Shown: in pieces, positions 18,435 through 30,062 of the stretch
Position numbering within the stretch: the first letter of the stretch is position 1
Layout of the letters: each line of letters starts with the position of its first letter
Source: Candidatus Methylomirabilis oxygeniifera
GTDB lineage: Bacteria > Methylomirabilota > Methylomirabilia > Methylomirabilales > Methylomirabilaceae
Assembly (NCBI GenBank): GCA_000091165.1
Contig: FP565575.1
Span: 1,590,001 to 1,622,000, forward strand
Length of the DNA: 32,000 nucleotides
Direction of reading: 5' to 3'
Translations under genes and position numbers: made by a program
Notes under the pieces: generated by a model
The model's database searches: none
What the model was told of the DNA's origin: nothing
The model's input: the letters and a program-made list of their open reading frames with translations, nothing else

Positions 18435-19817
18435 CTATGGGAGCTTGATCCCATATTTCTTCATCAGGCGATGGACTGTCTTTCGGTCCACACAGGCAGC
18501 CTTTGCGGCTTGCGAGATATTGCCGTCATGCCGCTTGAGGAGCCGGACCAGATAGTCCCGCTCAAATGAGCCGGCCCACACCTCTTTTGCCCGCTTGAGC
18601 GGCAGTTCATTCGGCGACACCAGCAAGGCGGCTTCGGCCTTTATGCGGATCTGTTCCGGTAGATCCTGCGGCCGGACCAGCTCGTGTTCGGCCAGGACCA
18701 CCGCTCGCTCCATGACATTCTGAAGTTCGCGAACGTTCCCAGGCCAACTGTGCGCCTCCAGGAGCCGCATTGCCTCCGGCGTGACGCCTTTGACTTCCTT
18801 CTCGCTGCCGGCTGCATATTTTGTCAGGTAGTGATGCGCAATCAACTGAATATCTCCCGCACGATCGCGCAGGGGCGGCAGCGGAAGCGAGATGACGTTC
18901 AGGCGATAATAGAGGTCTTCCCGAAATCTGCCCATGGCGACGGCCTGAGCCAGGTCGTGGTTGGTGGCCGAGATGACGCGCACGTCCACCTCGATCATTC
19001 GGTTTGAGCCGACCCGTCGCACCTGACGTTCCTGCAGGACTCTCAGCAGCTTCGCCTGAAGATTCAGGCTGATGTCGCCCACTTCATCCAGGAAGATGGT
19101 CCCACCGCTGGCAAATTCAAACAGCCCGGGACGAGTCGCCTGCGCTCCCGTGAACGCGCCCTTCTCGTGTCCGAACAGTTCACTCTCCAACAGGTTCTCC
19201 GGAAGCGAGACGCAATCAACGGGGATGAACGGACCGGTCGCCCGACGGCTGTTGACATGGAGACTCCTGGCGATCAGCTCTTTGCCGGTCCCGGTCTCAC
19301 CGATGATCAGGATGTTGGCCTCGCTCTTCGCCACCTTCTTGATGGTCTCAAAGACCTGGAGCATCGGCAGGCTCCTGCCGATGATATTGTCGAACCGATG
19401 GGTCTCGGTCAGTTGCTCCAGAAGTCGCCGGTTCTCTTCCCGCAAACGACGCCGGTCCATCGCCCGCTCGACACAGACCCTGAGTTGATCAGCCGAAAAC
19501 GGCTTGGGCAGATAATCGAATGCGCCTTCTTTGATCGCTTCGACGGCGGTCTCGATCGTGGCAAAGGCGGTGATCAGGATTACGGTCGCTTCGGGATCGA
19601 TTGCCCGAATCGCCTGGAGGACGCCCAGGCCGTCAAGGCCCGGCATGCGAAGATCGGTGAGCACCAAATCCGGCCTTTCCCGCTCGTACAGCGTGGCTGC
19701 CTTGCCGCTCTCGGCCTCGGTCATCGCCTCGTAGCCAAAGCGAGTGAGCAGCCTGGCGCAGTTTTCGAGCATGTCCACTTCGTCATCGATCACCAGTACT
19801 CGGCCTAGCTTCGGCAT
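18435..19817 (-). CDS. Sigma-54-dependent response regulator (REC + AAA+ + Fis-type HTH; NtrC family)
   Basis: RVLVIDDE..LVLTDLRMPG (receiver), GETGTGKE, GAFTGA, GGTIFLDEV and the C-terminal HTH ISQAAKAACVDRKTVHRLMKKYGI. The ATG at 19817 has GAAGGGA upstream. The GTG at 19841 would overlap the kinase stop. Confidence 0.9.
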   Translation of the reverse strand: MPKLGRVLVIDDEVDMLENCARLLTRFGYEAMTEAESGKAATLYERERPDLVLTDLRMPGLDGLGVLQAIRAIDPEATVILITAFATIETAVEAIKEGAFDYLPKPFSADQLRVCVERAMDRRRLREENRRLLEQLTETHRFDNIIGRSLPMLQVFETIKKVAKSEANILIIGETGTGKELIARSLHVNSRRATGPFIPVDCVSLPENLLESELFGHEKGAFTGAQATRPGLFEFASGGTIFLDEVGDISLNLQAKLLRVLQERQVRRVGSNRMIEVDVRVISATNHDLAQAVAMGRFREDLYYRLNVISLPLPPLRDRAGDIQLIAHHYLTKYAAGSEKEVKGVTPEAMRLLEAHSWPGNVRELQNVMERAVVLAEHELVRPQDLPEQIRIKAEAALLVSPNELPLKRAKEVWAGSFERDYLVRLLKRHDGNISQAAKAACVDRKTVHRLMKKYGIKLP

Positions 19818-19837
19818 CCTGTCCCTTCTCTCATCTT

Positions 19838-21163
19838 TCACGCGTCCTCCGCCGGCAACGTCATGACAAAGGTGGTCCCATTCCCGGCCTCGCTCCGGAC
19901 GTCCAGCCGCCCCCCATGCTCTTTGACGATTCCATAACTGATCGACAGGCCCAGCCCTGTACCGTTCTGCTTCGTGGTGAAGAATGGGTCAAAGATCTGC
20001 TGGACAAGCATCTCGGGAACCCCATCCCCGGTATCGGCGACCAGGATTTGGACAGTTCTGTCGTCTGCTCCTAAGCGGCTCTCCACACGGAGGCGGCCGC
20101 CGGCAGTCATCGCCTCGCGAGCATTGGTGAACAGATTCAGCAATACCTCCTCCAGTTGGCTGACGTTTCCCTTCACCTTCGGCAGCGAAGGCGCGAGGCG
20201 CCGTTCCAGAACGATCTGCTCTTTTTCAAGCTGTCGCTCGATCAGCAGCAGGCTCTCCTCGATCACTCCATTCATGTCCAAGGACAGCCGTTGTCCGGTA
20301 GCAGGCCGGGAGAAGGACAGCAGCCCTCGCGCCACGCGGGCTGCCCGCTGGGCGTGCTTCTCGATCACCTTCAGGTCATCAATGAACTGCTTCGGAATCT
20401 CTGTCTCCTGCGCATCCATCAAGGCCAACTCTACACGGGAAGTGATGATCCCAAGCGGGTTATTGATCTCGTGTGCGAGACCCGCTGACAGCGTCCCAAG
20501 GGCGCTCAACTTCTCGACCTGGCGCACTTGCCGCTCCAGGGCAACGCGCCTGGTCACGTCCTCCTTCAACTCGCGATTGACGGCTTCCAACTCGCGTCGA
20601 GCCCGCCGCTCCCGCTCGGAAAGGATGACAAGAGGCGCCACCACCAAGATCATAAAGCCCAACCGTAGAGAGACGATGCTCGCGGAGGTCGGTTGCCAGG
20701 AAGGCCAGATAACCATCACATACAGAAGCGAGGACGAGACCAGCACTCCGACGCCGCGCCGGAAGCCATAATAGTAGGCCTGGAGAGCGGCGATCAAATA
20801 GAGCGCCAGAAAAAATGGACTCTCGACTCCGCCGGTCAGCCGAATCAGGGCCAGGGAAAAACCCAGATCGATCATCAGGACCAGGAGGTTGAGTCGCTTC
20901 ATCCGCTCCTGGTGAGCCACAATCCAGGCATAGAGCAGGATACAGTACAGCGTGAAGGCGTGTAGAAGGAGGGTGACCGCACTTCGCTGGAGCTGGGGAA
21001 AAGGAGTCAGCAGGAGCCACCCATACCCCCCGATGATGGCCGCAACCCTGAGGGCCACAAAATCGTACATCGGAGACTGGCGATGTCCCCGTGTCAGGAG
21101 AGCCAGGATATTGTCGTCGCTTTTCGTTGACACTTTCTCTGTTGCCTCGACACCATTACTCAT
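19838..21163 (-). CDS. Sensor histidine kinase with a multi-pass membrane N-terminal domain
   Basis: About 5-6 hydrophobic helices, then H-box LSAGLAHEINNPLG, N-box LLNLFTNAREAM and G-boxes DTGDGV and GTGLGLSISYGIV. Confidence 0.9.
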   Translation of the reverse strand: MSNGVEATEKVSTKSDDNILALLTRGHRQSPMYDFVALRVAAIIGGYGWLLLTPFPQLQRSAVTLLLHAFTLYCILLYAWIVAHQERMKRLNLLVLMIDLGFSLALIRLTGGVESPFFLALYLIAALQAYYYGFRRGVGVLVSSSLLYVMVIWPSWQPTSASIVSLRLGFMILVVAPLVILSERERRARRELEAVNRELKEDVTRRVALERQVRQVEKLSALGTLSAGLAHEINNPLGIITSRVELALMDAQETEIPKQFIDDLKVIEKHAQRAARVARGLLSFSRPATGQRLSLDMNGVIEESLLLIERQLEKEQIVLERRLAPSLPKVKGNVSQLEEVLLNLFTNAREAMTAGGRLRVESRLGADDRTVQILVADTGDGVPEMLVQQIFDPFFTTKQNGTGLGLSISYGIVKEHGGRLDVRSEAGNGTTFVMTLPAEDA

Positions 21164-21231: not shown

Positions 21232-21254
21232 CATTCCTCTGTCATCAGAGAATG
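21232..21254. promoter_or_regulatory. Imperfect inverted repeat upstream of candidate sigma-54 promoter P1
   Basis: CATTC(C)TCTG-tcat-CAGAGAATG. Its centre lies about 41 bp upstream of the -24 GG. Confidence 0.3.
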
Positions 21255-21282
21255 AGATCCGTTCCATCCCGCTGCCCCCACC

Positions 21283-21298
21283 TGGCCCAAGAGTTGCT
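21283..21298 (+). promoter_or_regulatory. Candidate sigma-54 (-24/-12) promoter P1
   Basis: TGGCCCaagagTTGCT compared with consensus TGGCAC-N5-TTGCW. GG at 21284-21285 and GC at 21296-21297 give exact GG-N10-GC spacing. It points at the ferredoxin-bEBP gene. Confidence 0.5.
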
Positions 21299-21383
21299 AG
21301 CGAGAAGAGGGGCAGGCGTGAGCCCCCCGATGCCGTCCGGCGTGCCCGCCGGACGGCAGGGGACCCCCCAGGAGTCCACGAGG

Positions 21384-23054
21384 ATGACGCGGATGCGCAA
21401 GGTCCGGTTTGAACCGCTGGGCATCACCATCGAGTGTGACGACACCGAGTCGGTCCTGCAGGTCGCCCTGCGCCAGGGCCTGCGCCTGGTCGATTACCGC
21501 TGCGCGGACGGCGAGTGCGGGGGCTGTAAGGCCCGCCTCCGCAGCGGCCAGGCCCACCTGGTCGCGCCGCCGGATCACGTGCTCTCCGCCAGCGAGCAGG
21601 CCCAGGGCCACGTCCTGCTCTGCCGCACCCACGTCCAAAGCGATCTGGTGATCGAGCTCTTAGCCGGCTCGCTCCTCGCCCCGCCGTTGCCCGACGTCCC
21701 GCCGGCGCGCGCTGCCGAGGCGCTGCTGGGGCCGCTCACCGCCGCCGCGGAGTTGCTCAGCGACGGCCTGCTGGTGCTGGATCCGCAGGGGCAGGTGCTG
21801 CTGTGCAATCGGGCCGCCGCGCACCTGCTGCAGCTCGACCCCGCCCGGCCCTCCGTCGCGGCGATCCCGGAGCTGGCCGAGGTCGGCCGCACCCTGCTGA
21901 CCCGTGCCCCCTCCAGCCCCCAGGAGGTCAAGGTCTACTGCGGGCGCAGCGGCCGGCTCCTTACGGCCTGGGGCCTGGCGCTCCGGCACGGCTCGCAGGT
22001 GGTCGCCGCCGCCGTGCTCTTTCCGACCGCCCGACTGGAGCCGCCCGTCCCCCGCAAGCCCAAGGCGATCGTGGTGGGGGCCAAGTACACCTTTGCCGAT
22101 CTGGTGGGGCAGTCCGCCGCCTTCCGCAACGCGACCAAGATCGGCCTCATCGCCGCCGGCAACACCCTCTCCGTCCTCATCACCGGGGAATCGGGGACCG
22201 GGAAAGAGATGCTCGCGCATGCGATCCACGCCAGCTCCCCCCGCGCCCCCAAGCCGTTCATCGCGGTCAACTGCGGTGCCATCCCCCGGGAGCTGATCGA
22301 GTCTGAGCTGTTCGGCTATGAAGACGGCACCTTTACCGGCGCGCGCAAAGGCGGCCGGTCGGGCCGGTTCGAAGAGGCCCAGGGCGGCACCCTCTTCCTC
22401 GATGAGGTCAGCGAGTGCTCGCCCAGCACCCAGGTGGCGCTCCTGCGGGTGCTGGAGCAGCAGGAGCTCACCCGACTAGGGAGCGGCCAGCCGGTCCCCC
22501 TCGATGTCCGCATCATCGCCGCGACCAATAAAGACCTGCTCAAAGAGGTGGCCAAGGGGCTGTTTCGGGAGGACCTGTACTACCGGCTCAATGTCATTTC
22601 GATCCACCTGCCGCCCTTGCGGGAGCGGCGGGAGGATATCCCCCTGCTGGCGGCCTCCTTCCTGGCCGATGTCGCCGCCGCCTTGCACTGCCCGGACCTG
22701 CGCTTTACGGAGGAGGCGCTGCGCGCGCTCGCGCTCACCCCGTATCCGTGGCCCGGCAATGTCCGGGAGCTGCGCAATGTCCTGCAGCAGGTGGGCGTGC
22801 TCCTGCCGCGGCCCGAGATCCGCTGGGACGACTTTCCCGAGGCGATTCGCACCCTGCGCGGGGAGGCCTCCGAGCGGCCGGAGCCCGGCGGCTGGCTCGC
22901 GCAGACCGAACGGCAGCTCATCTGTCAGATCGTCCAGCAATGTGCGGGGAATTTGTCGCAGGCCGCGGCCCAGCTCGGCATCTCCCGCAGTACGCTGTAT
23001 CGCAAACTGGAGCAGTTTGGTCTGAAACGACAGACGCAGATTGACTCAGTCTGA
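21384..23054 (+). CDS. Sigma-54 enhancer-binding protein with an N-terminal plant-type 2Fe-2S ferredoxin domain and a PAS-like domain
   Basis: VRFEPLGITIECDDTESVLQVALRQGLRLVDYRCADGECGGCKARL..GHVLLCRT gives C-x4-C-x2-C-x31-C spacing. The PAS-like segment is AELLSDGLLVLDPQGQVLLCNRAAAHLL. AAA+ motifs are GESGTGKE, GTFTGA and GGTLFLDEV. The HTH is LSQAAAQLGISRSTLYRKLEQFGL. I chose the ATG at 21384 (AGGAG 9 nt upstream). The ORF-track ATG at 21252 lies upstream of the putative promoter. Confidence 0.85.
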   Translation: MTRMRKVRFEPLGITIECDDTESVLQVALRQGLRLVDYRCADGECGGCKARLRSGQAHLVAPPDHVLSASEQAQGHVLLCRTHVQSDLVIELLAGSLLAPPLPDVPPARAAEALLGPLTAAAELLSDGLLVLDPQGQVLLCNRAAAHLLQLDPARPSVAAIPELAEVGRTLLTRAPSSPQEVKVYCGRSGRLLTAWGLALRHGSQVVAAAVLFPTARLEPPVPRKPKAIVVGAKYTFADLVGQSAAFRNATKIGLIAAGNTLSVLITGESGTGKEMLAHAIHASSPRAPKPFIAVNCGAIPRELIESELFGYEDGTFTGARKGGRSGRFEEAQGGTLFLDEVSECSPSTQVALLRVLEQQELTRLGSGQPVPLDVRIIAATNKDLLKEVAKGLFREDLYYRLNVISIHLPPLRERREDIPLLAASFLADVAAALHCPDLRFTEEALRALALTPYPWPGNVRELRNVLQQVGVLLPRPEIRWDDFPEAIRTLRGEASERPEPGGWLAQTERQLICQIVQQCAGNLSQAAAQLGISRSTLYRKLEQFGLKRQTQIDSV

Positions 23055-23120
23055 GACAGCTGTGGTGGGACAGCTGTCGCAGGGTGGGGCGAATTGGACT
23101 CGACGCTCTTATCACCCGTG

Positions 23121-23149
23121 TTACAGCGGGCAGCCCGCACAATTATAAT
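23121..23149 (+). promoter_or_regulatory. Candidate sigma-70 promoter for the outer-membrane protein gene
   Basis: TTACAG (23121-23126), 17 nt, then a perfect TATAAT (23144-23149), in an AT-rich spacer. Confidence 0.5.
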
Positions 23150-23218
23150 TAAAGGTTAGTGGATCAATGGAGCTTCACGACCGAGGGAACCATCACATCT
23201 TACCAAGGGGGGTGAATA

Positions 23219-24118
23219 GTGAAAATCTTAGGGACACATGTGGGCAAGACGGGCTGGACTGCGGTCGCACTTTTATTGTTTATGCCATTGTTTTCTCTCT
23301 TCATAGGGAATGCGGAAGGACAAACTCGCAGTGAACTGAACCAACTGAAGCAGGAGTTACAAATGCTGCGAAACGAAGTTCAAACGAAGAACAATATGAT
23401 TAACCGGATGCAGCAGCGTTTAGAGGCACTCGAGACGAAGATGCAGGCGGAAGTTCCGCGTCCCGTGGAAGAGAAAATGACCGCTCTGAAGGAGGAGATG
23501 AAGACTGAGTTGGCCGCGAAGGCGGCAAGCTCCGGACTGTCTGGGGGGCAGGTCTTCTTTAAGGGTGGATTTGTCCGCATGGATCATCCGCGGAGCAATT
23601 CACTCTTGACGGCCCAAAGCGATTCCGGCGATAAAGACGGTTGGCAGGTCGGAGGCGGAGTGGACCTGCCTATAATGACGATCTTCAACAGTACGCTTCT
23701 TGGGGAAATCTATGTTGAATATATTCAGACCCAGAAGACGAAAGGTGATTCGCCTGTCGAGGTAGAACCGGGAGCCCCGGGAAAGAAGCTCGCGGAGAAG
23801 AGGGGATTGGAAAACATTCTGACCGTGGGTGTCGCCCCAAAAATCCGGTTCGACAACCTGGGCTCCATCCGACCCTGGCTGGCCCCCTATCGGCCCTGGA
23901 TTATGCCTGTCGGCCTGACCTTCAATGTAAATACCCCCGTCAATAAGGCCATTACCAACATCAGCGTGGGTGGAGTCAGCGGATTTGGCGCTGAACGGCT
24001 TTTCTGGAACAACCGGGTTAGTCTTGGCGTCGACTTCCGCTACTATTGGGGTCCTGATATCCCGGATGAAAACCTCCGACACTTTACCACTGGGGGCTAT
24101 GTCGGGCTCAATTTCTAA
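23219..24118 (+). CDS. Putative outer-membrane beta-barrel protein with signal peptide and N-terminal coiled coil
   Basis: Signal-like N-terminus (TAVALLLFMPLFSLFIGNAEG), about 70 aa of heptads (LNQLKQELQMLRNEVQ..LEALETKMQ), then alternating-hydrophobic strands ending in YVGLNF (terminal Phe). GTG start with AGGGGGGTG upstream. About 52% GC on sampled lines. Confidence 0.65.
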   Translation: MKILGTHVGKTGWTAVALLLFMPLFSLFIGNAEGQTRSELNQLKQELQMLRNEVQTKNNMINRMQQRLEALETKMQAEVPRPVEEKMTALKEEMKTELAAKAASSGLSGGQVFFKGGFVRMDHPRSNSLLTAQSDSGDKDGWQVGGGVDLPIMTIFNSTLLGEIYVEYIQTQKTKGDSPVEVEPGAPGKKLAEKRGLENILTVGVAPKIRFDNLGSIRPWLAPYRPWIMPVGLTFNVNTPVNKAITNISVGGVSGFGAERLFWNNRVSLGVDFRYYWGPDIPDENLRHFTTGGYVGLNF

Positions 24119-24126
24119 CAGAACAG

Positions 24127-24147
24127 TTGTCTCACCCGCTGAGACAA
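24127..24147 (+). terminator. Hairpin directly after the outer-membrane protein gene stop (no U-tract)
   Basis: TTGTCTCA-cccgc-TGAGACAA, starting 9 nt after the stop codon. Confidence 0.35.
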
Positions 24148-24181
24148 GACATGATGCAAAATGAGATTGATATGTGTGGTA

Positions 24182-24221
24182 GAGAAGGGGGAGGCCGTCT
24201 TGGGGACGCCTCCCCCTTCTC
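24182..24221. other. Strong hairpin: 14-bp perfect stem with a 12-nt loop
   Basis: GAGAAGGGGGAGGC (24182-24195) pairs with GCCTCCCCCTTCTC (24208-24221). No adjacent T-tract on either strand. Confidence 0.5.
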
Positions 24222-24290
24222 GCAACGCGATGCCTACAGAGCTCGGCCCCTGTCAGCCTTCAGAATAATCGCTCTTATTTTGTTCCAGCT

Positions 24291-24306
24291 TGTGATTGTT
24301 ATCACA
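24291..24306. promoter_or_regulatory. Perfect 16-bp palindrome TGTGATTGTTATCACA
   Basis: It fits both the CRP-type TGTGA-N6-TCACA and the NifA-type UAS TGT-N10-ACA. Its centre is about 39 bp upstream of the -24 GG of P2. Confidence 0.45.
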
Positions 24307-24335
24307 TTTTCTGGATGGTTGGTGTGCTAACCCCA

Positions 24336-24351
24336 CGGCACCAATAGTGCA
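24336..24351 (+). promoter_or_regulatory. Candidate sigma-54 (-24/-12) promoter P2
   Basis: cGGCACcaataGTGCA. GG at 24337-24338 and GC at 24349-24350 give exact GG-N10-GC spacing. The next plus-strand gene starts at 24601. Confidence 0.45.
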
Positions 24352-24600
24352 TAGACAACACCATGCTTTTGTAACTGCAATGTGTGGGTTTATTCGCTTC
24401 TTCCCGATTCTCCCCTGGTCCGACACAACGCTCAATCCTTCAACATCCCACTGACATTACCCACCTCTCCCTTGTCAGCTGCCTCGGAAGTGTGGATAAT
24501 CATCACGCCAGCCTACTGGATTCCGGCAATGAGCGTTGGGTAAGAAGATCGTCGTCCGACAGGGACCAAAAGGGTCCGATTCGGCAGAAGGAGGAGTCGT

Positions 24601-25035
24601 ATGCATGTCACACTTGAACAGGCAGAGAAGGCAATTGCGGCAGCCATCGACAAGGCCAAAGAGCTTGGGACGTGTATGGATATTGCCGTCGTGGACTCAG
24701 GCGCCAACTTGAAGGCGTTCGTCCGGATGGACGATGCGTGGGTCGGGAGCATCGACATCGCCTTCAAAAAGGCGAAAACCGCGTGCTTCTTTGCGATGCC
24801 GACAGGACAGATCGGCAAGCTGTCCCAGCCCGGCGGCCCGCTCTACGGGATTGAGCACAGTAACGATGGGCTCATCACCTTTCCCGGCGGGCTGCCGATT
24901 GTCAACACGGATGGAGTCCTGATCGGGGCGATCGGGGTCAGCGGCAGCACGGTGGAGCACGATCATCTCGTGGCCCAGGCCGGCGTCAAGGTAATTGGTC
25001 TTGCCGATCTCCCGGTACACCCATGGCGGACATAG
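24601..25035 (+). CDS. GlcG/HbpS-like protein (DUF336, heme-binding family)
   Basis: 144 aa: [58 protein letters not shown]...[10 protein letters not shown]. Strong SD AAGGAGGAG. No signal peptide. Confidence 0.85.
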
Positions 25036-25128
25036 GATTCCTCTCCCCGCCTGGAGAGAAGATCGCGGTGATGGGGAGCCAACGTACCGATCTGCAATCT
25101 CATTGACGCGCCGTCGGTGCATGAGGCA

Positions 25129-25557
25129 TCACCTGATTGCGAGTTTCCCTTTATGGTCGAGCGGACTGATCCACGGGAACCTGGTGCAGCCGAACGCGAA
25201 GACTCCGGAACGCTCTGCCAGAAACTCAATGGTAATTTCCTGCCCCGGCTCGAGATAGCGCCTGACCTCCAGGTCGGGGATTGAAAACACATGCCTGGCG
25301 CCATCGCTGCGAATCGCGACCTTGACCAACGCCGACCTCCCTTCTCGATCCACCGCGACGACAGAGGGCTCACAGCGATAGTTCCGGGCGATCATCGTAA
25401 AAGACAGTCGTTTCGCCTCTACAGGGATACCGGCGGGAGGGGAGATTTCAGGGAAGACGGTCGCGCACCCTGTCATGACCACGACCGGGATCGCCAGTGG
25501 CCAGATTCGGAATCGGCGTATGAGCGTGCTGATTGAAAACCTTCCTATGCTTCGCAT
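25129..25557 (-). CDS. Cupredoxin-like lipoprotein
   Basis: Lipobox VVVMTGC. Cupredoxin-like layout ..ARHVFSIPDLEV..LEPGQEITIEFLAERSGVFAFGC...LDHKGKLAI. His, Cys and His ligand positions are plausible, but no obvious Met ligand. I chose the ATG at 25557; the ORF track starts at 25578. Confidence 0.6.
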   Translation of the reverse strand: MRSIGRFSISTLIRRFRIWPLAIPVVVMTGCATVFPEISPPAGIPVEAKRLSFTMIARNYRCEPSVVAVDREGRSALVKVAIRSDGARHVFSIPDLEVRRYLEPGQEITIEFLAERSGVFAFGCTRFPWISPLDHKGKLAIR

Positions 25558-25617
25558 CGTGCTATCGCACAATACCATAGGGTTGCAAAGGTTTTCAAGT
25601 GCGGCGACGAACGAGAC

Positions 25618-25646
25618 TTCACAAAACTGCAGAAAGCTCCTATGAT
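25618..25646 (+). promoter_or_regulatory. Candidate sigma-70 promoter for the response regulator / kinase operon
   Basis: TTCACA (25618-25623), 17 nt, then TATGAT (25641-25646), 40 nt upstream of the ATG at 25686. Confidence 0.4.
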
Positions 25647-25685
25647 AACCTAGGGCTGTTGAAGCCGCCCCCTCTCAAAGCGACC

Positions 25686-27068
25686 ATGACACAAACAAGA
25701 ATATTAATTGCAGACGACGAACCTGCGTCCAGAGCCGGCCTCCAAGAGCTCCTCGCAAGCTGGGGATACGAGGTCACCGCTGCTGCTGACGGTCAGGAGG
25801 CCCTGGAGAAGGCCTCTGAACTCCAACCGTCTCTCATTATCGCCGATCTCATCATGCCGAAAATGGACGGCATCGCTCTCCTTCGCGCCCTCAAGAGCGA
25901 TGCGATCCTTCCATCGCTGATCATTCTGACCGGCCAGGGGACCATCGAGACTGCGGTCCGGGCTATGCAAGAGGGAGCCTACGACTACCTGACCAAACCG
26001 GTCGATATCGGGCGGCTCCGCGTCCTTGTGGAGAAGGCCCTCGAACGTGGAGCGGTATTGAAGGAGGTCAAGCTACTGCGTCACCAGGTTCGTCATCTCG
26101 GCCGGTTTGGACAGTTGGTCGGCGAGACGTCCGCCATGAAGGAGGTCTACCGACTGCTTGAATTGGCGGCGCCCAGCGCTGCGCCCGTCTTCATCTGGGG
26201 AGAGAGCGGAACAGGAAAGGAGCTGGCGGCCAGAACGATTCACGATCTCTCTCCACGGAAACAGAGCCCTTTCGTCCCGATCAACTGTGCCGCTATCCCG
26301 GAGACGCTGTTGGAAAGTGAGATTTTTGGCCACGAGAAGGGAGCCTTTACCGGCGCTACCGAGCGAAGAATGGGATATTTTGAGCTGGCCGACAGCGGAA
26401 CTATTTTTCTTGATGAAATTGCGGAGATGAAGGTCTCCACCCAGGCGAAGTTTCTCAGGATCCTCCAGGAGGGAACCTTCCGCCGCCTGAGCGGAAGCAA
26501 AGAGATCCGCGTTGATGTCCGGGTGGTCGCCGCGACAAATAAAAACCCGGCGCAAGCAGTTCAGGATGGTCTCATCCGTGAGGATCTCTATTATCGGCTG
26601 AACGTGTTCAACATTCAACTACCTCCTCTTCGGGAACGGCGCGAGGATCTTCCTCTCCTCATTCGATCGTTCCTTGAGGAGTTCAAGAGGAAATACGATA
26701 CGGCAGTACGCAGCGTAGGCGCAGGGTCGCTCACCCTGCTGACCGAATACGATTGGCCCGGAAATGTTCGGGAGCTTCGAAATGTGCTGGAGCGGGCCGT
26801 CCTCGTGGCCCAGAGCAACACAATCACCCCAGATGATCTGCCGCCGAACTTTCCGAGTCACCGTCGTCGGTCAATCCGGGAGCCTGATCTTTCCGTCGGA
26901 ATCACAATCGATGCGGCAGAACAAGCCCTGATTCTCGCAACACTGGAACGAACACACCAGAACAAGACTAAGGCTGCGGAGATTCTTGGGATCAGTCTAA
27001 AGACGCTGCATAATAAGTTGACCCGCTATCGCGAAGAGGCCTCCTCGCCGGCGGATCCGCGGGAATAG
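25686..27068 (+). CDS. Sigma-54-dependent response regulator (NtrC family)
   Basis: RILIADDEP..LIIADLIMPKMDG (receiver), GESGTGKE, GAFTGA, SGTIFLDEI and the HTH KTKAAEILGISLKTLHNKL. ATG at 25686 (MTQTRIL..). Confidence 0.92.
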   Translation: MTQTRILIADDEPASRAGLQELLASWGYEVTAAADGQEALEKASELQPSLIIADLIMPKMDGIALLRALKSDAILPSLIILTGQGTIETAVRAMQEGAYDYLTKPVDIGRLRVLVEKALERGAVLKEVKLLRHQVRHLGRFGQLVGETSAMKEVYRLLELAAPSAAPVFIWGESGTGKELAARTIHDLSPRKQSPFVPINCAAIPETLLESEIFGHEKGAFTGATERRMGYFELADSGTIFLDEIAEMKVSTQAKFLRILQEGTFRRLSGSKEIRVDVRVVAATNKNPAQAVQDGLIREDLYYRLNVFNIQLPPLRERREDLPLLIRSFLEEFKRKYDTAVRSVGAGSLTLLTEYDWPGNVRELRNVLERAVLVAQSNTITPDDLPPNFPSHRRRSIREPDLSVGITIDAAEQALILATLERTHQNKTKAAEILGISLKTLHNKLTRYREEASSPADPRE

Positions 27069-27074
27069 GTTCAC

Positions 27075-28880
27075 ATGTCGTTCGGCCTCCGAGGCAAAGC
27101 GGTCCTCGGCATCAGTCTTCTGGTCTTCCTGATCGTCTCACTTACGGTGGTCGTTCACCTCTCCACCACCACCCGCTTGGTTGTTCAGCATGCGGCGGAA
27201 AAGGGCGCCATACAGGCACAGCACATCTTCTCCGGAAGCACCCGGGTCATGGCTCGCGCGCAGAGGAGCCGTTTAGGGGATGCGTTGCGCAACGATCGAG
27301 AACTCCGCGCGCTTCTCGACGCCAGCATCGGCTATTCCCCGCACTTGGTCTATGCCATGATTACCGACCGCTCGGATACGGTCCTCATGCACAGTCAGCG
27401 TTCCCGTGAAGGAAACAAGGTCCCACCCAGACCGAAGATTGAACAGTTGATGGCGATCAACCCTCTTCGTCAGCTCGCGGTACTGGCCGGCCAGCACCAG
27501 GTACTTGAGACCGTCCTGCCGCTCAGCCTCAACGATCGGCCTTTCGGGGCAATTCGGCTTGGATTGGCCGGCGGTCTCCTCTGGCGCGAACTCTTGCCCG
27601 CGGTTCGGCAAAGTGTGCTGCTGGCACTACTCGCTTTCCCGCTCGCCTGGATCGTCGCCCTTGTCCTGTCGAACCTGGTGGTCGCGTCGTTGCGTCAGAT
27701 TGCCCAAGGCGTTGATCGGATGGCACGCGGCGAGTTTGACACAGTCTTTACGTCCGACCGCGACGACGAGGTAGGACAGATTGCGGCAAAGCTCAATCTC
27801 CTGGGGCGGCAGGTCCAGGAAGACCGATCCTCCCTGATCAGCGAAAAGGTCAGATTGGAAGGGATCGTTCACCGTCTGGAAGACGCCATCATCCTGCTGA
27901 ATAGCGAACAGGCTATCATCTTCGCCAACCCCGCCGCCGAGATCCTGCTGGTCCGTCCACTCGTGCATGCTGTCGGTCAATCGCTGGCACATATCCTGGG
28001 GGAGACTCACCCATTAGTCGCGGCAACGGTCGAGAGTTTCCAGCGGCAAGCGCCCGTGCGAAACCTGACGCTTCAAATGAGGGAACACCGCGACGTCCCT
28101 TTAGATGTCCTAGCCTCCATCTACCCGGTGCTCGATAAGGATGGTATCGTCGGGGGAATGATCCTTCTCAAAAATACCGAACCACTCCGCCAGATCCAGT
28201 CACTCGTAGACTATTCCAGAAAGCTGGCCGACCTTGGGAGGCTCACCTCTGGGGTGGCCCATGAAATCAAGAATCCGTTGAACGCCATGATCATTCACTT
28301 AGAGCTGTTGAAACAGAAATTGAACGATCCTTCGGAGACGGTGGCGAAGAGTCTGGAATTTCTCGGGGGAGAGGTTCATCGCCTTGATCGTATGGTGCAA
28401 GGCTTTCTCCGATTTGTCCGTCCTCAAACGCTTGCGCTTCGACCCATGAGCCTCAATACCCTCCTCCAGGAAGTCGTCCGGTTGGCTGAGGCGCAAGGAG
28501 CGCATGCCGGGGTGACGTTTGTACTTCGCCTCGACGGCACGATCCCTCCGATCAATGGCGATCATGAGCTGCTTCGACAGGCCTTCCTCAACCTGGTCCT
28601 GAATGCGTGCCAGGCAATGCCGGATGGAGGAGCGGTCACCCTTGCCACGGATCGGAGCGCTGAGGGTGCCATCCGCGCCCACGTCATCGATCACGGCATA
28701 GGGATTCCCGCGGAAGACCTCGACAAGATATTCCGTCTTTACTACACTACCAAGCCGGACGGGAACGGGATCGGGCTGTCGTTGGTGTACCGAATCGTTC
28801 AGATGCACGGCGGCAGCGTCGAGGTCGACTCGAAGGTAGGACAGGGAACAACAATGGCGGTCACTTTTCCTGTAGCCTGA
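27075..28880 (+). CDS. Sensor histidine kinase (2 TM + periplasmic domain, HAMP, PAS, HisKA, HATPase_c)
   Basis: TM helices near aa 10-30 and 180-205, HAMP (LRQIAQGVDRMARGEFD), PAS-like (IVHRLEDAIILLNSEQAIIFANPAAE), H-box LTSGVAHEIKNPLN, N-box NLVLNACQAM and G-boxes DHGIGIP and GIGLSLV. Confidence 0.92.
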   Translation: MSFGLRGKAVLGISLLVFLIVSLTVVVHLSTTTRLVVQHAAEKGAIQAQHIFSGSTRVMARAQRSRLGDALRNDRELRALLDASIGYSPHLVYAMITDRSDTVLMHSQRSREGNKVPPRPKIEQLMAINPLRQLAVLAGQHQVLETVLPLSLNDRPFGAIRLGLAGGLLWRELLPAVRQSVLLALLAFPLAWIVALVLSNLVVASLRQIAQGVDRMARGEFDTVFTSDRDDEVGQIAAKLNLLGRQVQEDRSSLISEKVRLEGIVHRLEDAIILLNSEQAIIFANPAAEILLVRPLVHAVGQSLAHILGETHPLVAATVESFQRQAPVRNLTLQMREHRDVPLDVLASIYPVLDKDGIVGGMILLKNTEPLRQIQSLVDYSRKLADLGRLTSGVAHEIKNPLNAMIIHLELLKQKLNDPSETVAKSLEFLGGEVHRLDRMVQGFLRFVRPQTLALRPMSLNTLLQEVVRLAEAQGAHAGVTFVLRLDGTIPPINGDHELLRQAFLNLVLNACQAMPDGGAVTLATDRSAEGAIRAHVIDHGIGIPAEDLDKIFRLYYTTKPDGNGIGLSLVYRIVQMHGGSVEVDSKVGQGTTMAVTFPVA

Positions 28881-29573: not shown

Positions 29574-29589
29574 TGGCATACCGCTTGCT
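29574..29589 (+). promoter_or_regulatory. Candidate sigma-54 (-24/-12) promoter P3
   Basis: TGGCATaccgcTTGCT. GG at 29575-29576 and GC at 29587-29588. The predicted start is near 29600, followed by the SD AAAGGAGA and the GTG at 29622. Confidence 0.6.
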
Positions 29590-29621
29590 CCCTTTCCATT
29601 CTGAAGAAAGGAGATGGGGCG

Positions 29622-30062
29622 GTGAGCGCACGACAATTGCATTGTACAGGACAGAAGGTGCTCGTCGTAGATGACGATTCATCCTTCAGGGAACTCCTGA
29701 CCGAGCTTCTAGAAACGGCAGGCTACCACGTGTGGACTGCTCAAGACGGCCTGGCCGGCCTTCATGCCCTACACAACGGTCCATTCGATCTCATCCTGGT
29801 GGACTACCGAATGCCTGGAATGACCGGCCTCGACATGGCCGCACACATACGGAGGTCCGATACCGTGACTCCGATCATCCTTATCACGGGCGACTATTAC
29901 ATGCTTGACCCTGAGATCGTGACGCGGGCCGGGGTGACAAAGGTACTGCCGAAACCTCTTAAGATTAATGAGTTCTTAAACGTCTGTTCAATCGGAAAGC
30001 AACAATACAAATATGAACCATGCCTCGACAATCCGAGCAGAGGAGGGAGCTGGGATGCGTAG
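29622..30062 (+). CDS. Single-domain CheY-like response regulator (receiver only, short C-terminal tail)
   Basis: VLVVDDD, LILVDYRMPGMTG (phospho-acceptor Asp), IILITGD and KVLPKPL. No output domain. Confidence 0.85.
   Translation: MSARQLHCTGQKVLVVDDDSSFRELLTELLETAGYHVWTAQDGLAGLHALHNGPFDLILVDYRMPGMTGLDMAAHIRRSDTVTPIILITGDYYMLDPEIVTRAGVTKVLPKPLKINEFLNVCSIGKQQYKYEPCLDNPSRGGSWDA

Follow-up and report, generated by a model that had tools for sequence, protein, structure and literature searches.

A 32-kb stretch of Candidatus (Ca.) Methylomirabilis oxygeniifera DNA (contig FP565575.1, positions 1,590,001 to 1,622,000; hereafter the window) carries, at 21384-23054 on the forward strand, the gene of a sigma-54 activator, or bacterial enhancer-binding protein (bEBP), in which a ferredoxin (Fer2) domain precedes PAS, AAA+ and Fis-type helix-turn-helix (HTH) domains. 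The open reading frame (ORF) spans 21252-23054, and we assigned the start of the coding sequence (CDS) to 21384 (MTRMRKVRF) because homologues begin with the same residues and the sequence upstream is unrelated between copies in different contexts; an AGGAG motif lies 11 nt 5' of this codon. The protein is an exact match of KAB2958315.1 and, except for the called start, is identical to CBE68918.1 and CBE69526.1 of Ca. M. oxyfera, whose starts are placed 18–22 residues too early. Both of these entries are publicly labelled 'GAF modulated sigma54 specific transcriptional regulator, Fis family (fragment)', and the JGI pipeline appends '/ferredoxin' to the name of the protein. The GAF-modulated fragment annotation is wrong: no GAF family was found in a Pfam scan down to E = 1, and the N-terminal region is Fer2. 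Homologous loci, on contigs of genomes and metagenome-assembled genomes (MAGs), are labelled L001-L020 below, and proteins carry P-numbers (among family members, e.g. P0025 and P0028).

The AAA+ core is that of a bEBP, with Walker A, Walker B and a GAFTGA-type loop. Sigma54_activat (PF00158) covers aa 240-408 over the full length of the model (E 6e-66) and is followed by AAA_lid_14 at aa 413-495. The Walker A motif GESGTGKE (268-275), the sigma-54 contact loop GTFTGA (315-320), which is an A-to-T variant of GAFTGA at position 2, and the Walker B motif LFLDEV (337-342) are all invariant across the family, and in Foldseek comparisons this part matches ZraR, FleQ, NtrC1 and DmpR by fold. At the C-terminus, the HTH_8 domain expected of a bEBP is accompanied in the DNA by candidate cognate palindromes and -24/-12 elements, described below. 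The PAS_8 match is partial and marginal (aa 120-155, 22.7 bits against a cut-off of 21.8), but the fold supports it, since in the full-length AlphaFold2 (AF2) model the region consists of a helix and five strands (helix 109-122, strands 128-132 and 138-141, helices, then strands 180-186, 191-202 and 205-213) with a predicted local distance difference test score (pLDDT) of 67-89. The hidden Markov model (HMM) match and the five-stranded fold together identify this segment as a PAS domain.

The N-terminal domain contains four cysteines, C40, C45, C48 and C80, in the spacing C-x4-C-x2-C-x31-C, and its alignment with the Fer2 HMM covers profile positions 4-76 of 77; the same Fer2 match is found in P0025. 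All four cysteines are kept in 22 of the 23 family members, C40, C45 and C80 being invariant and C48 present in 22, and they are also invariant, together with conserved surrounding glycines, in alignments with the Fer2 domains of reductases. The nearest solved structure by sequence is the ferredoxin domain of MmoC (1JQ4, E 1.3e-10), followed by the P450 reductase GcoB, plant ferredoxins, T4moF and BenC. C40, C45, C48 and C80 align to residues 42, 47, 50 and 82 of the 1JQ4 chain, which we take to be the cluster ligands of MmoC. An AF2 model of the domain alone, built from a Fer2-only alignment, has beta-grasp topology (pLDDT 84, predicted TM-score 0.76) and resembles solved [2Fe-2S] ferredoxins in Foldseek with TM-scores of up to 0.84 (approximately 0.7-0.84 when normalised to the target, 0.64-0.73 when normalised to the query) and a root-mean-square deviation of 1.6-1.8 Å for the best matches. 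The monooxygenase and dioxygenase reductases (MmoC 1JQ4, T4moF 4WQM, BenC 1KRH, GcoB 5OGX) thus supply the best solved matches by both sequence and fold, with all four cysteines aligned; their ferredoxin domains are joined to FAD and NAD domains, whereas the one described here is joined to a transcription activator. Judged by an HMM score above the curated threshold, the four conserved cysteines and the predicted beta-grasp structure, the sensor is a bona fide Fer2 fold, and from these features we infer that it binds a [2Fe-2S] cluster.

It is conceivable that the domain does not sense through a cluster at all but is a cluster-less remnant or a docking module, with the PAS domain or a partner protein providing the signal. 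The Fer2 domain does derive from those of reductases, which normally serve docking and electron transfer (its nearest database relatives are Fer2-FAD_binding_6-NAD_binding_1 proteins), the 556-aa protein has no FAD or NAD domain in Pfam with which to reduce a cluster, and PAS domains are frequent sensors in related bEBPs. We nevertheless regard this alternative as improbable, as the four ligand cysteines and the nearby glycines are under strong constraint, the fold model matches holo-ferredoxins, and docking would itself normally need the cluster.

The combination of a Fer2 domain with a bEBP core is rare. A word-indexed search of 5.8 billion protein clusters retrieved approximately 23 clusters with 65-97% identity to the full protein, all of them carrying Fer2 and Sigma54_activat, after which the score dropped sharply to proteins of 43% identity without Fer2. 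The named sources of the family clusters are Methylomirabilis, NC10 or Methylomirabilota, except for one partial sequence labelled Verrucomicrobiae. In an exhaustive HMMER search of 1.84 billion representatives with the 239-aa sensor, only one protein, a 50%-identity cluster belonging to the family, covered both Fer2 and PAS, and all other matches covered the Fer2 part only. Sigma54_activat was present in just one of the top 149 Fer2 matches, which was the family itself, the remainder being mostly Fer2-FAD-NAD reductases with a few diiron-hydroxylase fusions; a bEBP fused independently to a more distant Fer2 domain would fall outside such lists of the top 150. Among 185,579 species-representative genomes we found two loci, both in Methylomirabilota MAGs. 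Across the cluster, HMMER and species-genome searches there was no close homologue outside NC10. In the literature we found no work on this regulator, on sigma-54 in connection with pmoCAB (the genes of particulate methane monooxygenase, pMMO), or on the neighbouring DAMO locus tags, and a comparative genomics paper on Methylomirabilis lists pmoCAB and names no regulator (PMC6094997). The Fer2-bEBP architecture is, in sum, rare and uncharacterised. As a separate observation, two of the closest Fer2 relatives (among P0132-P0279) carry the MmyB-like ligand-binding domain MLTR_LBD, which hints at a separate, unrelated fusion of Fer2 with a regulator; in the same set, three proteins have a diiron hydroxylase domain and one has MmoB/DmpM.

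The nearest relatives outside the family are AcoR-type bEBPs with the order GAF-PAS-AAA+-HTH_8 (for example the sigma54-specific regulator P0038 of Thermacetogenium phaeum), which are 44% identical from PAS to the C-terminus. They are built on the same PAS / AAA+ / lid / HTH_8 scaffold and presumably use ATP to remodel sigma-54 in the same way, but carry an N-terminal GAF domain where the present protein has Fer2. The homology with the AcoR-like relative begins at aa 125 of the present protein, which aligns with residue 229 there, downstream of the GAF domain, so that Fer2 occupies the GAF position. Among NCBIfam models, nifA and other equivalogs match partially, over the core only, and all below their cut-offs. 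These results bear out an initial annotation of the locus, made from the sequence alone, which had described a Fer2 / PAS / sigma-54 AAA+ / HTH protein, had recognised the cysteine signature, now seen to align with the MmoC ligand positions, and had known of no characterised bEBP with a ferredoxin-fold sensor. The coordinates of the gene, its domains and the surrounding elements are collected in Table 1.

Table 1. Features of the Fer2-bEBP cassette and its surroundings, in window coordinates.
Feature	Position	Strand	Basis
CDS, 556-aa Fer2-PAS-AAA+-lid-HTH_8 sigma-54 activator	21384..23054	+	ORF, Pfam, family alignment
Fer2 ([2Fe-2S] ferredoxin) domain, aa 10-84	21411..21635	+	Pfam PF00111 E 4.6e-11, 42.9 bits vs cut-off 21
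Codons of the four cysteines	21501-21503, 21516-21518, 21525-21527, 21621-21623	+	motif search
PAS fold, aa 109-215	21708..22028	+	marginal Pfam PAS_8, AF2 topology, homology to AcoR-like bEBPs
Sigma-54 AAA+ core and lid, aa 240-495	22101..22868	+	Pfam, motifs, Foldseek
Walker A; GTFTGA loop; Walker B	22185-22208; 22326-22343; 22392-22409	+	motif search
Fis-type HTH_8 DNA-binding domain, aa 505-545	22896..23018	+	Pfam E 7e-13, nearly invariant in family
Two-copy cassette (promoter, leader, gene, palindromes), coinciding with GC-rich patch	21275..23090	+	L003/L004 repeat
Sigma-54-type -24/-12 element TGGCCC-AAGAG-TTGCT, 85 nt 5' of start codon, at cassette 5' edge	21283..21298	+	conservation
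Perfect 12-nt inverted repeat with 4-nt loop in GC-rich leader	21331..21358	+	inverted-repeat search
Tandem palindromes GACAGCTGTGG-TGG-GACAGCTGTCG directly after stop codon, candidate enhancer (upstream activating sequence, UAS)	23055..23079	.	uniqueness, conservation
Sigma-70-like promoter GTTACA-18-TATAAT for 299-aa gene	23120..23149	+	promoter search
299-aa secreted ORF resembling outer-membrane proteins (OMP), following cassette in non-pmoC context	23219..24118	+	homologues in L001, L003, L013

The gene is part of a repeat. In MAG GCA_040960765.1 it occurs on two contigs (L003 and L004) with a common segment of 1,819 bp (99.6% identity) that begins 108 bp 5' of the start codon, ends 34 bp beyond the stop and has unrelated flanks; the seven differences all fall at the repeat edges and the interior of the CDS is identical. 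The window equivalent of this repeat runs over 21275-23088 when compared with L004 and over 21280-23091 when compared with L009. Two copies are also present in the closed Ca. M. oxyfera genome, where CBE68918.1 and CBE69526.1 are identical proteins. The window and L003 represent the same chromosomal context, being collinear over 10.6 kb, and are 94.5% identical in the cassette as against 94.9% and 96.5% in the flanks. Furthermore, the copies group by lineage and not by context, L004 (pmoC context) being 95.6% identical to the window and L010 (thrS context) 83%, and both contexts recur across divergent genomes. The identity of copies within a genome, the approximately 5% difference between orthologous copies and the grouping by lineage point to concerted evolution, in which gene conversion would keep the copies identical; this argument draws on one genome with both copies available as DNA and one with both available as proteins. 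Contigs L002, L005, L010, L016, L018 and L020 break off at the gene or within it, as a collapsed repeat would lead one to expect, and the repeat breaks or scrambles Methylomirabilis assemblies right beside pmoCAB.

The leader of the gene contains an inverted repeat (Table 1), and close relatives have similar but different GC-rich dyads there. A conserved RNA element was considered and rejected, as RNAalifold predicted zero pairs on 13 family leaders; the inverted repeat is lineage-specific. In L007 (3424-3818), the leader of the regulator gene is broken by an insertion of approximately 330 bp with terminal inverted repeats (TAGTGTAGTGTTTCATAAAT ... ATTTATGAAACACTACACTA), which looks like a miniature inverted-repeat transposable element.

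Composition sets the cassette apart from its surroundings. The GC content of the gene is 0.700, compared with 0.596 and 0.555 in the flanks, 0.529 in the next gene and 0.585 in the rest of the window, and in steps of 100 nt the GC plateau coincides with the repeat unit (approximately 21275-23090). The deviation is synonymous: GC at third codon positions (GC3) is 0.89 versus 0.58-0.75 in 17 other ORFs of the window, and GC at four-fold degenerate sites (GC4) reaches 0.97 (A 1%, T 2%) versus 0.73 in 11 neighbouring genes, while neither GC at second positions (0.479) nor the combined share of Gly, Ala, Pro and Arg (0.348) leaves the range seen in other window genes. All family members are GC-rich (GC 0.65-0.73, GC3 0.78-0.93) between flanks of 0.54-0.60. 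When the main family clades are compared, their four-fold sites show an identity of 0.48-0.57, near chance for such a composition, and synonymous sites are therefore saturated; in spite of this, GC4 stays at 0.80-0.99 in all main clades. Because a donor signature should have decayed at saturated sites, the bias appears to be maintained at this locus, the best explanation being a persistent force specific to it. As the GC-rich stretch begins and ends where the conversion unit does, GC-biased gene conversion (gBGC) between the copies is the leading candidate, which we advance with low-to-moderate confidence; selection on synonymous sites or an ancient transfer may be alternative sources. Long ORFs in all six frames occur in the window only within this patch, where stop codons are scarce owing to the high GC, and overlapping genes were rejected since none of the six long alternative-frame ORFs has a Pfam match.

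The initial annotation had noted both the GC deviation (about 69%) and the ORFs in all frames, and both are real; its reading of the gene as compositionally foreign and possibly horizontally acquired did not hold up, the deviation being that of an intragenomic repeat, common to the family, synonymous and persistent at saturation. It had also missed the duplication and the linkage to pmoCAB described below, its domain claims standing as stated above. That the composition reflects a donor might be argued from the contrast of 0.70 with about 0.585 GC, with sharp edges at 21275 and 23090, from the nearest non-family Fer2 relatives, which are reductase domains from other, Ala/Arg-rich proteins, and from the fact that the fusion needed some recombination event. 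Yet close homologues are confined to NC10, the anomaly extends to all members down to 65% amino-acid identity, the amino-acid share of Gly, Ala, Pro and Arg is normal for the window, amelioration should have erased a donor signature in clades so saturated at four-fold sites, and the edges belong to a repeat that undergoes conversion within the genome. We find no support for recent horizontal transfer, and horizontal acquisition as the source of the composition is unlikely.

The window copy of the cassette is flanked on one side by a divergent pair of histidine kinase (HK) and REC-sigma54 regulator genes by thrS, and on the other by the 299-aa OMP-like ORF. Among the other loci with a visible downstream side, several have it next to the genes for pMMO: directly 5' of pmoC-pmoA-pmoB in L006, L007 and L008, directly 5' of pmoC-pmoA in L009, L015 and L017, where the examined DNA ends, and directly 5' of pmoC at the contig end in L004 (81% identical N-terminus) and L011. 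L014 has a pmoC-type promoter after the cassette and then the contig end, so we count nine pmoC-linked loci (L004, L006, L007, L008, L009, L011, L014, L015 and L017), L014 by its promoter only. No mmo genes were present at any examined locus; the linked operon is pmoCAB. The left flanks vary: they consist of a DEAD helicase gene, a NarJ-like gene or thrS, the last sometimes accompanied by the HK/response regulator pair. At least six flank combinations occur (L001, L009, L013 and L015 versus L003 and L004), namely DEAD/pmoC, thrS/OMP, NarJ/pmoC, NarJ/OMP, DEAD/OMP and HK/pmoC, a mixture that fits recombination between copies. Judging from close relatives, CBE69526.1 would be the M. oxyfera copy next to pmoC.

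Both the regulator gene and pmoC are preceded by predicted sigma-54 promoters. The element of the gene itself has the form TGG(C/A)(C/A)C-N5-TTGCT, and TGG-N9-TTGC is found at the same position in 18/20 loci, with variable spacer and leader; in the window, the count of elements of this type is at chance level by number alone. Its conservation suggests that the regulator gene may itself depend on sigma-54, being either autoregulated or, at the window locus, controlled by the REC-sigma54 regulator next to it. At the other end of the cassette, two adjacent palindromes of the ACAGnTGT type follow the stop codon in every copy. The 32-kb window contains a single GACAnnTGTC, against an expectation of 0.4, and L001, L005, L007, L008 and L009 likewise have one each; every one of these lies just after the stop codon, and the ACAGnTGT core is invariant in the intergenic alignment A3. 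The internal dyad of each unit is conserved and the hairpin between units is not (in L003, L004 and L006 the two units are direct repeats), and no T-run follows, a pattern that favours a candidate protein-binding site. The second palindrome, TGGGACAGGTGTTGCA, has a sigma-54-like score in L003 and L004, but its GG is lost in L007, L008 and L006, for which reason it was rejected as a promoter and is read as a candidate operator.

The predicted pmoC promoter, a -24/-12 element (TTGGCAYYATCCTTGCG), lies approximately 140 bp 3' of the palindromes, beyond an AT-rich tract, and approximately 330 bp 5' of pmoC. Its sequence is TTGGCA(C/T)(C/T)ATCCTTGCG, ending in TTGCT in L017, and TGGCA(C/T)-N5-TTGC(G/T) is present in 9/9 pmoC-linked loci; in a five-locus intergenic alignment averaging 71% identity the element is near-invariant, with two variable positions. 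The strict sigma-54 promoter pattern was matched nowhere else in the first six loci. Closer to the gene, the 5' leader of pmoC also contains an almost invariant block, AAACCTGTTACGTnAGTGGCGACAAAGGAGGTGAGAA, approximately 130 nt 5' of the start (L004 12030-12070, with equivalents in L006-L009 and L011), which is possibly a leader RNA element or a second promoter; no Rfam match was found in the pmoC leader, including this block and a CTTGACA motif that lies further 5' and is discussed below.

Based on these observations, we propose with moderate confidence that the protein is a one-component bEBP that would sense through a [2Fe-2S] cluster and, encoded on a two-copy cassette, would activate the genes for pMMO. 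The Fer2 domain would have taken the place of the GAF domain of AcoR-like relatives on a PAS / AAA+ / HTH_8 scaffold. HTH_8 would bind the palindromes at the 3' end of the cassette, where the protein would oligomerise; at the copy beside pmoCAB, this would position the activator about 140 bp 5' of the conserved sigma-54 promoter, and ATP hydrolysis by the AAA+ ring would open that promoter for pMMO transcription. The state of the [2Fe-2S] cluster, whether its redox state or its damage or nitrosylation by NO or O2, would be relayed through the PAS domain and release or impose control of the AAA+ ring, so that pMMO would be expressed according to the redox state, linked to NO and O2, in which the intra-aerobic pathway finds itself. 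Reduction of the cluster would come from a separate partner or a small molecule, and the window copy may act in trans because it encodes an identical protein. In the current view, Methylomirabilis derives the O2 that its pMMO consumes from NO, and a sensor of NO, O2 or redox state encoded upstream of pmoCAB would therefore make physiological sense, the signal itself being speculative; from sequence, an activator of pMMO that senses one of these through the cluster is the most likely identity of the protein.

Known regulators resemble parts of this proposal. SoxR switches transcription through the redox state or nitrosylation of a [2Fe-2S] cluster, but it is a MerR-family sigma-70 activator with a CX2CXCX5C motif and not a Fer2 fold; membership of the SoxR type was rejected, as there is no MerR family match and the cysteine spacing differs. 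NorR responds to NO through an iron centre in its regulatory domain, by which the repression of the AAA+ domain is lifted (PMC2941729); that centre is a mononuclear non-haem iron in a GAF domain, of which no match is found here. By analogy, NorR and SoxR show that each half of the proposed mechanism exists. VnfA and AnfA of Azotobacter vinelandii are likewise sigma-54 activators, and according to PMC9542535, which cites Nakajima et al. 2010, their activity is affected by conserved N-terminal cysteines and possibly by an Fe-S cluster. The VnfA cluster is an [Fe3S4] obtained by reconstitution and lies in a GAF domain with a short cysteine motif, the targets being nitrogenase genes, whereas the domain described here is a ferredoxin beta-grasp; VnfA/AnfA-type membership was rejected, there being no GAF domain in the protein. 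A likeness of another kind, at the level of the system, is to MmoR, although the 25 best of 46 NCBIfam families for the protein did not include an MmoR model. MmoR is a bEBP encoded beside the operon for soluble methane monooxygenase (sMMO), with its -24/-12 promoter at mmoX, in proteobacterial methanotrophs, and acts together with MmoG; to our knowledge it has no Fer2 domain, and its target is sMMO whereas here it would be pMMO.

The main competing explanation of the genomic evidence is that adjacency to pmoCAB is not regulatory, so that the activator controls itself or unlinked targets, a sigma-70-like promoter drives pmoCAB, and the palindromes form a hairpin for termination or stability of the regulator mRNA. 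In its favour, the regulator gene has its own conserved sigma-54 element, the cassette is also found away from pmoCAB, the pmoC leader has an invariant CTTGACA box, and a hairpin with a stem of 9 bp can be drawn from the palindromes of the window. In proteobacteria, sigma-70 is described as driving the pmoCAB operons. We consider this explanation to have little probability, because the pmoC sigma-54 element is among the best-conserved intergenic blocks, at all nine loci, with its strict pattern restricted to that position in the first six loci, because the potential to form a hairpin is not kept while the unit dyads are, and because the spacing of about 140 bp between UAS and promoter is typical of bEBPs.

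Several observations nonetheless weigh against one part or another of the proposal. The window copy is not adjacent to pmoCAB, an OMP-like gene and not pmoC lies downstream in four loci (window, L001, L003 and L013), and no sigma-54 site with both GG and GC and at least 10/12 matches was found at 23054-25600, downstream of the window copy. An invariant CTTGACA, resembling a sigma-70 -35 element, is located in the pmoC leader approximately 100 bp past the -24/-12 element; it suggests an additional sigma-70 promoter of pmoC, and pmoCAB may be driven mainly by sigma-70, as in proteobacterial methanotrophs. The mixed flank combinations could in part be assembly chimeras across the 1.8-kb repeat, and the explanation of the GC bias by gBGC draws on a single genome with both copies seen as DNA. 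As regards the sensor, one family cluster, P0028, has Gly at C48, the third ligand position, through an error in sequencing or because it is a natural variant deficient in the cluster. In addition, the full-length AF2 model gave a pLDDT of less than 50 for the Fer2 part and only the domain-only model was confident, a discrepancy we attribute to the full-length alignment, in which Fer2 was mixed with non-homologous GAF N-termini. The fuller picture, of a dedicated pMMO switch of NC10 that reads NO, O2 or redox state from a two-copy cassette whose synonymous GC has been driven to about 97% by gBGC, is tentative and, in our estimate, less likely than not.

Other features of the window are recorded here in their own right. 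The product of the 299-aa ORF behind the cassette has a signal peptide, a coiled coil that weakly matches the N-terminal part of FapF, and a C-terminal end, ...YVGLNF, of the kind usual in beta-barrel OMPs; no Pfam family matched it. At 24151-24306 a QrcA-like multihaem cytochrome gene is kept for its initial 52 codons (87% identical), after which stop codons follow. Relative to L003 12929-20058, approximately 7.1 kb is absent from the window; in L003 this segment encodes a complex like alternative complex III (ACIII) and Qrc, consisting of the cytochrome, a fused QrcB/QrcC-like subunit of 1,019 aa, NrfD, ActD, cytochrome c and a 422-aa membrane subunit, and the ACIII/Qrc-like operon is also present in L001. 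Three sigma-54 activator genes lie within approximately 8.6 kb of the window (18435-19841, 21384-23054 and 25599-27068), two of them paired with histidine kinases. Just downstream of the last, a REC-sigma54 regulator, and of its sCache-HAMP-PAS histidine kinase (27075-28880), a near-consensus sigma-54 promoter, TGGCAT-ACCGC-TTGCT (29574-29589), precedes a stand-alone receiver gene (29622-30062), with approximately 30 nt between the end of the site and the start codon; promoter and receiver (29574-30062) probably form a separate sigma-54 circuit.

The protein is a bEBP with a sensor fold not described for bEBPs, tied to a pMMO operon for which no such activator has been described. The control of pMMO in methanotrophs is a long-standing question, and the regulator is the first candidate switch for methane oxidation in the nitrite-dependent methanotroph Methylomirabilis, none having been proposed in the literature we found. 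It comes as a testable circuit, comprising a purifiable, predicted Fe-S domain of approximately 100 residues, a 25-bp candidate operator and a conserved -24/-12 promoter before pmoCAB. The cassette is, moreover, a natural case of two-copy concerted evolution with a GC4 of 0.97 in a genome of 58.6% GC, which is useful for testing gBGC in bacteria. If the proposal is true, the ferredoxin fold would be added to the sensors of bEBPs (REC, GAF, PAS, V4R, ACT and FHA), and Fe-S chemistry would feed directly into sigma-54 transcription.

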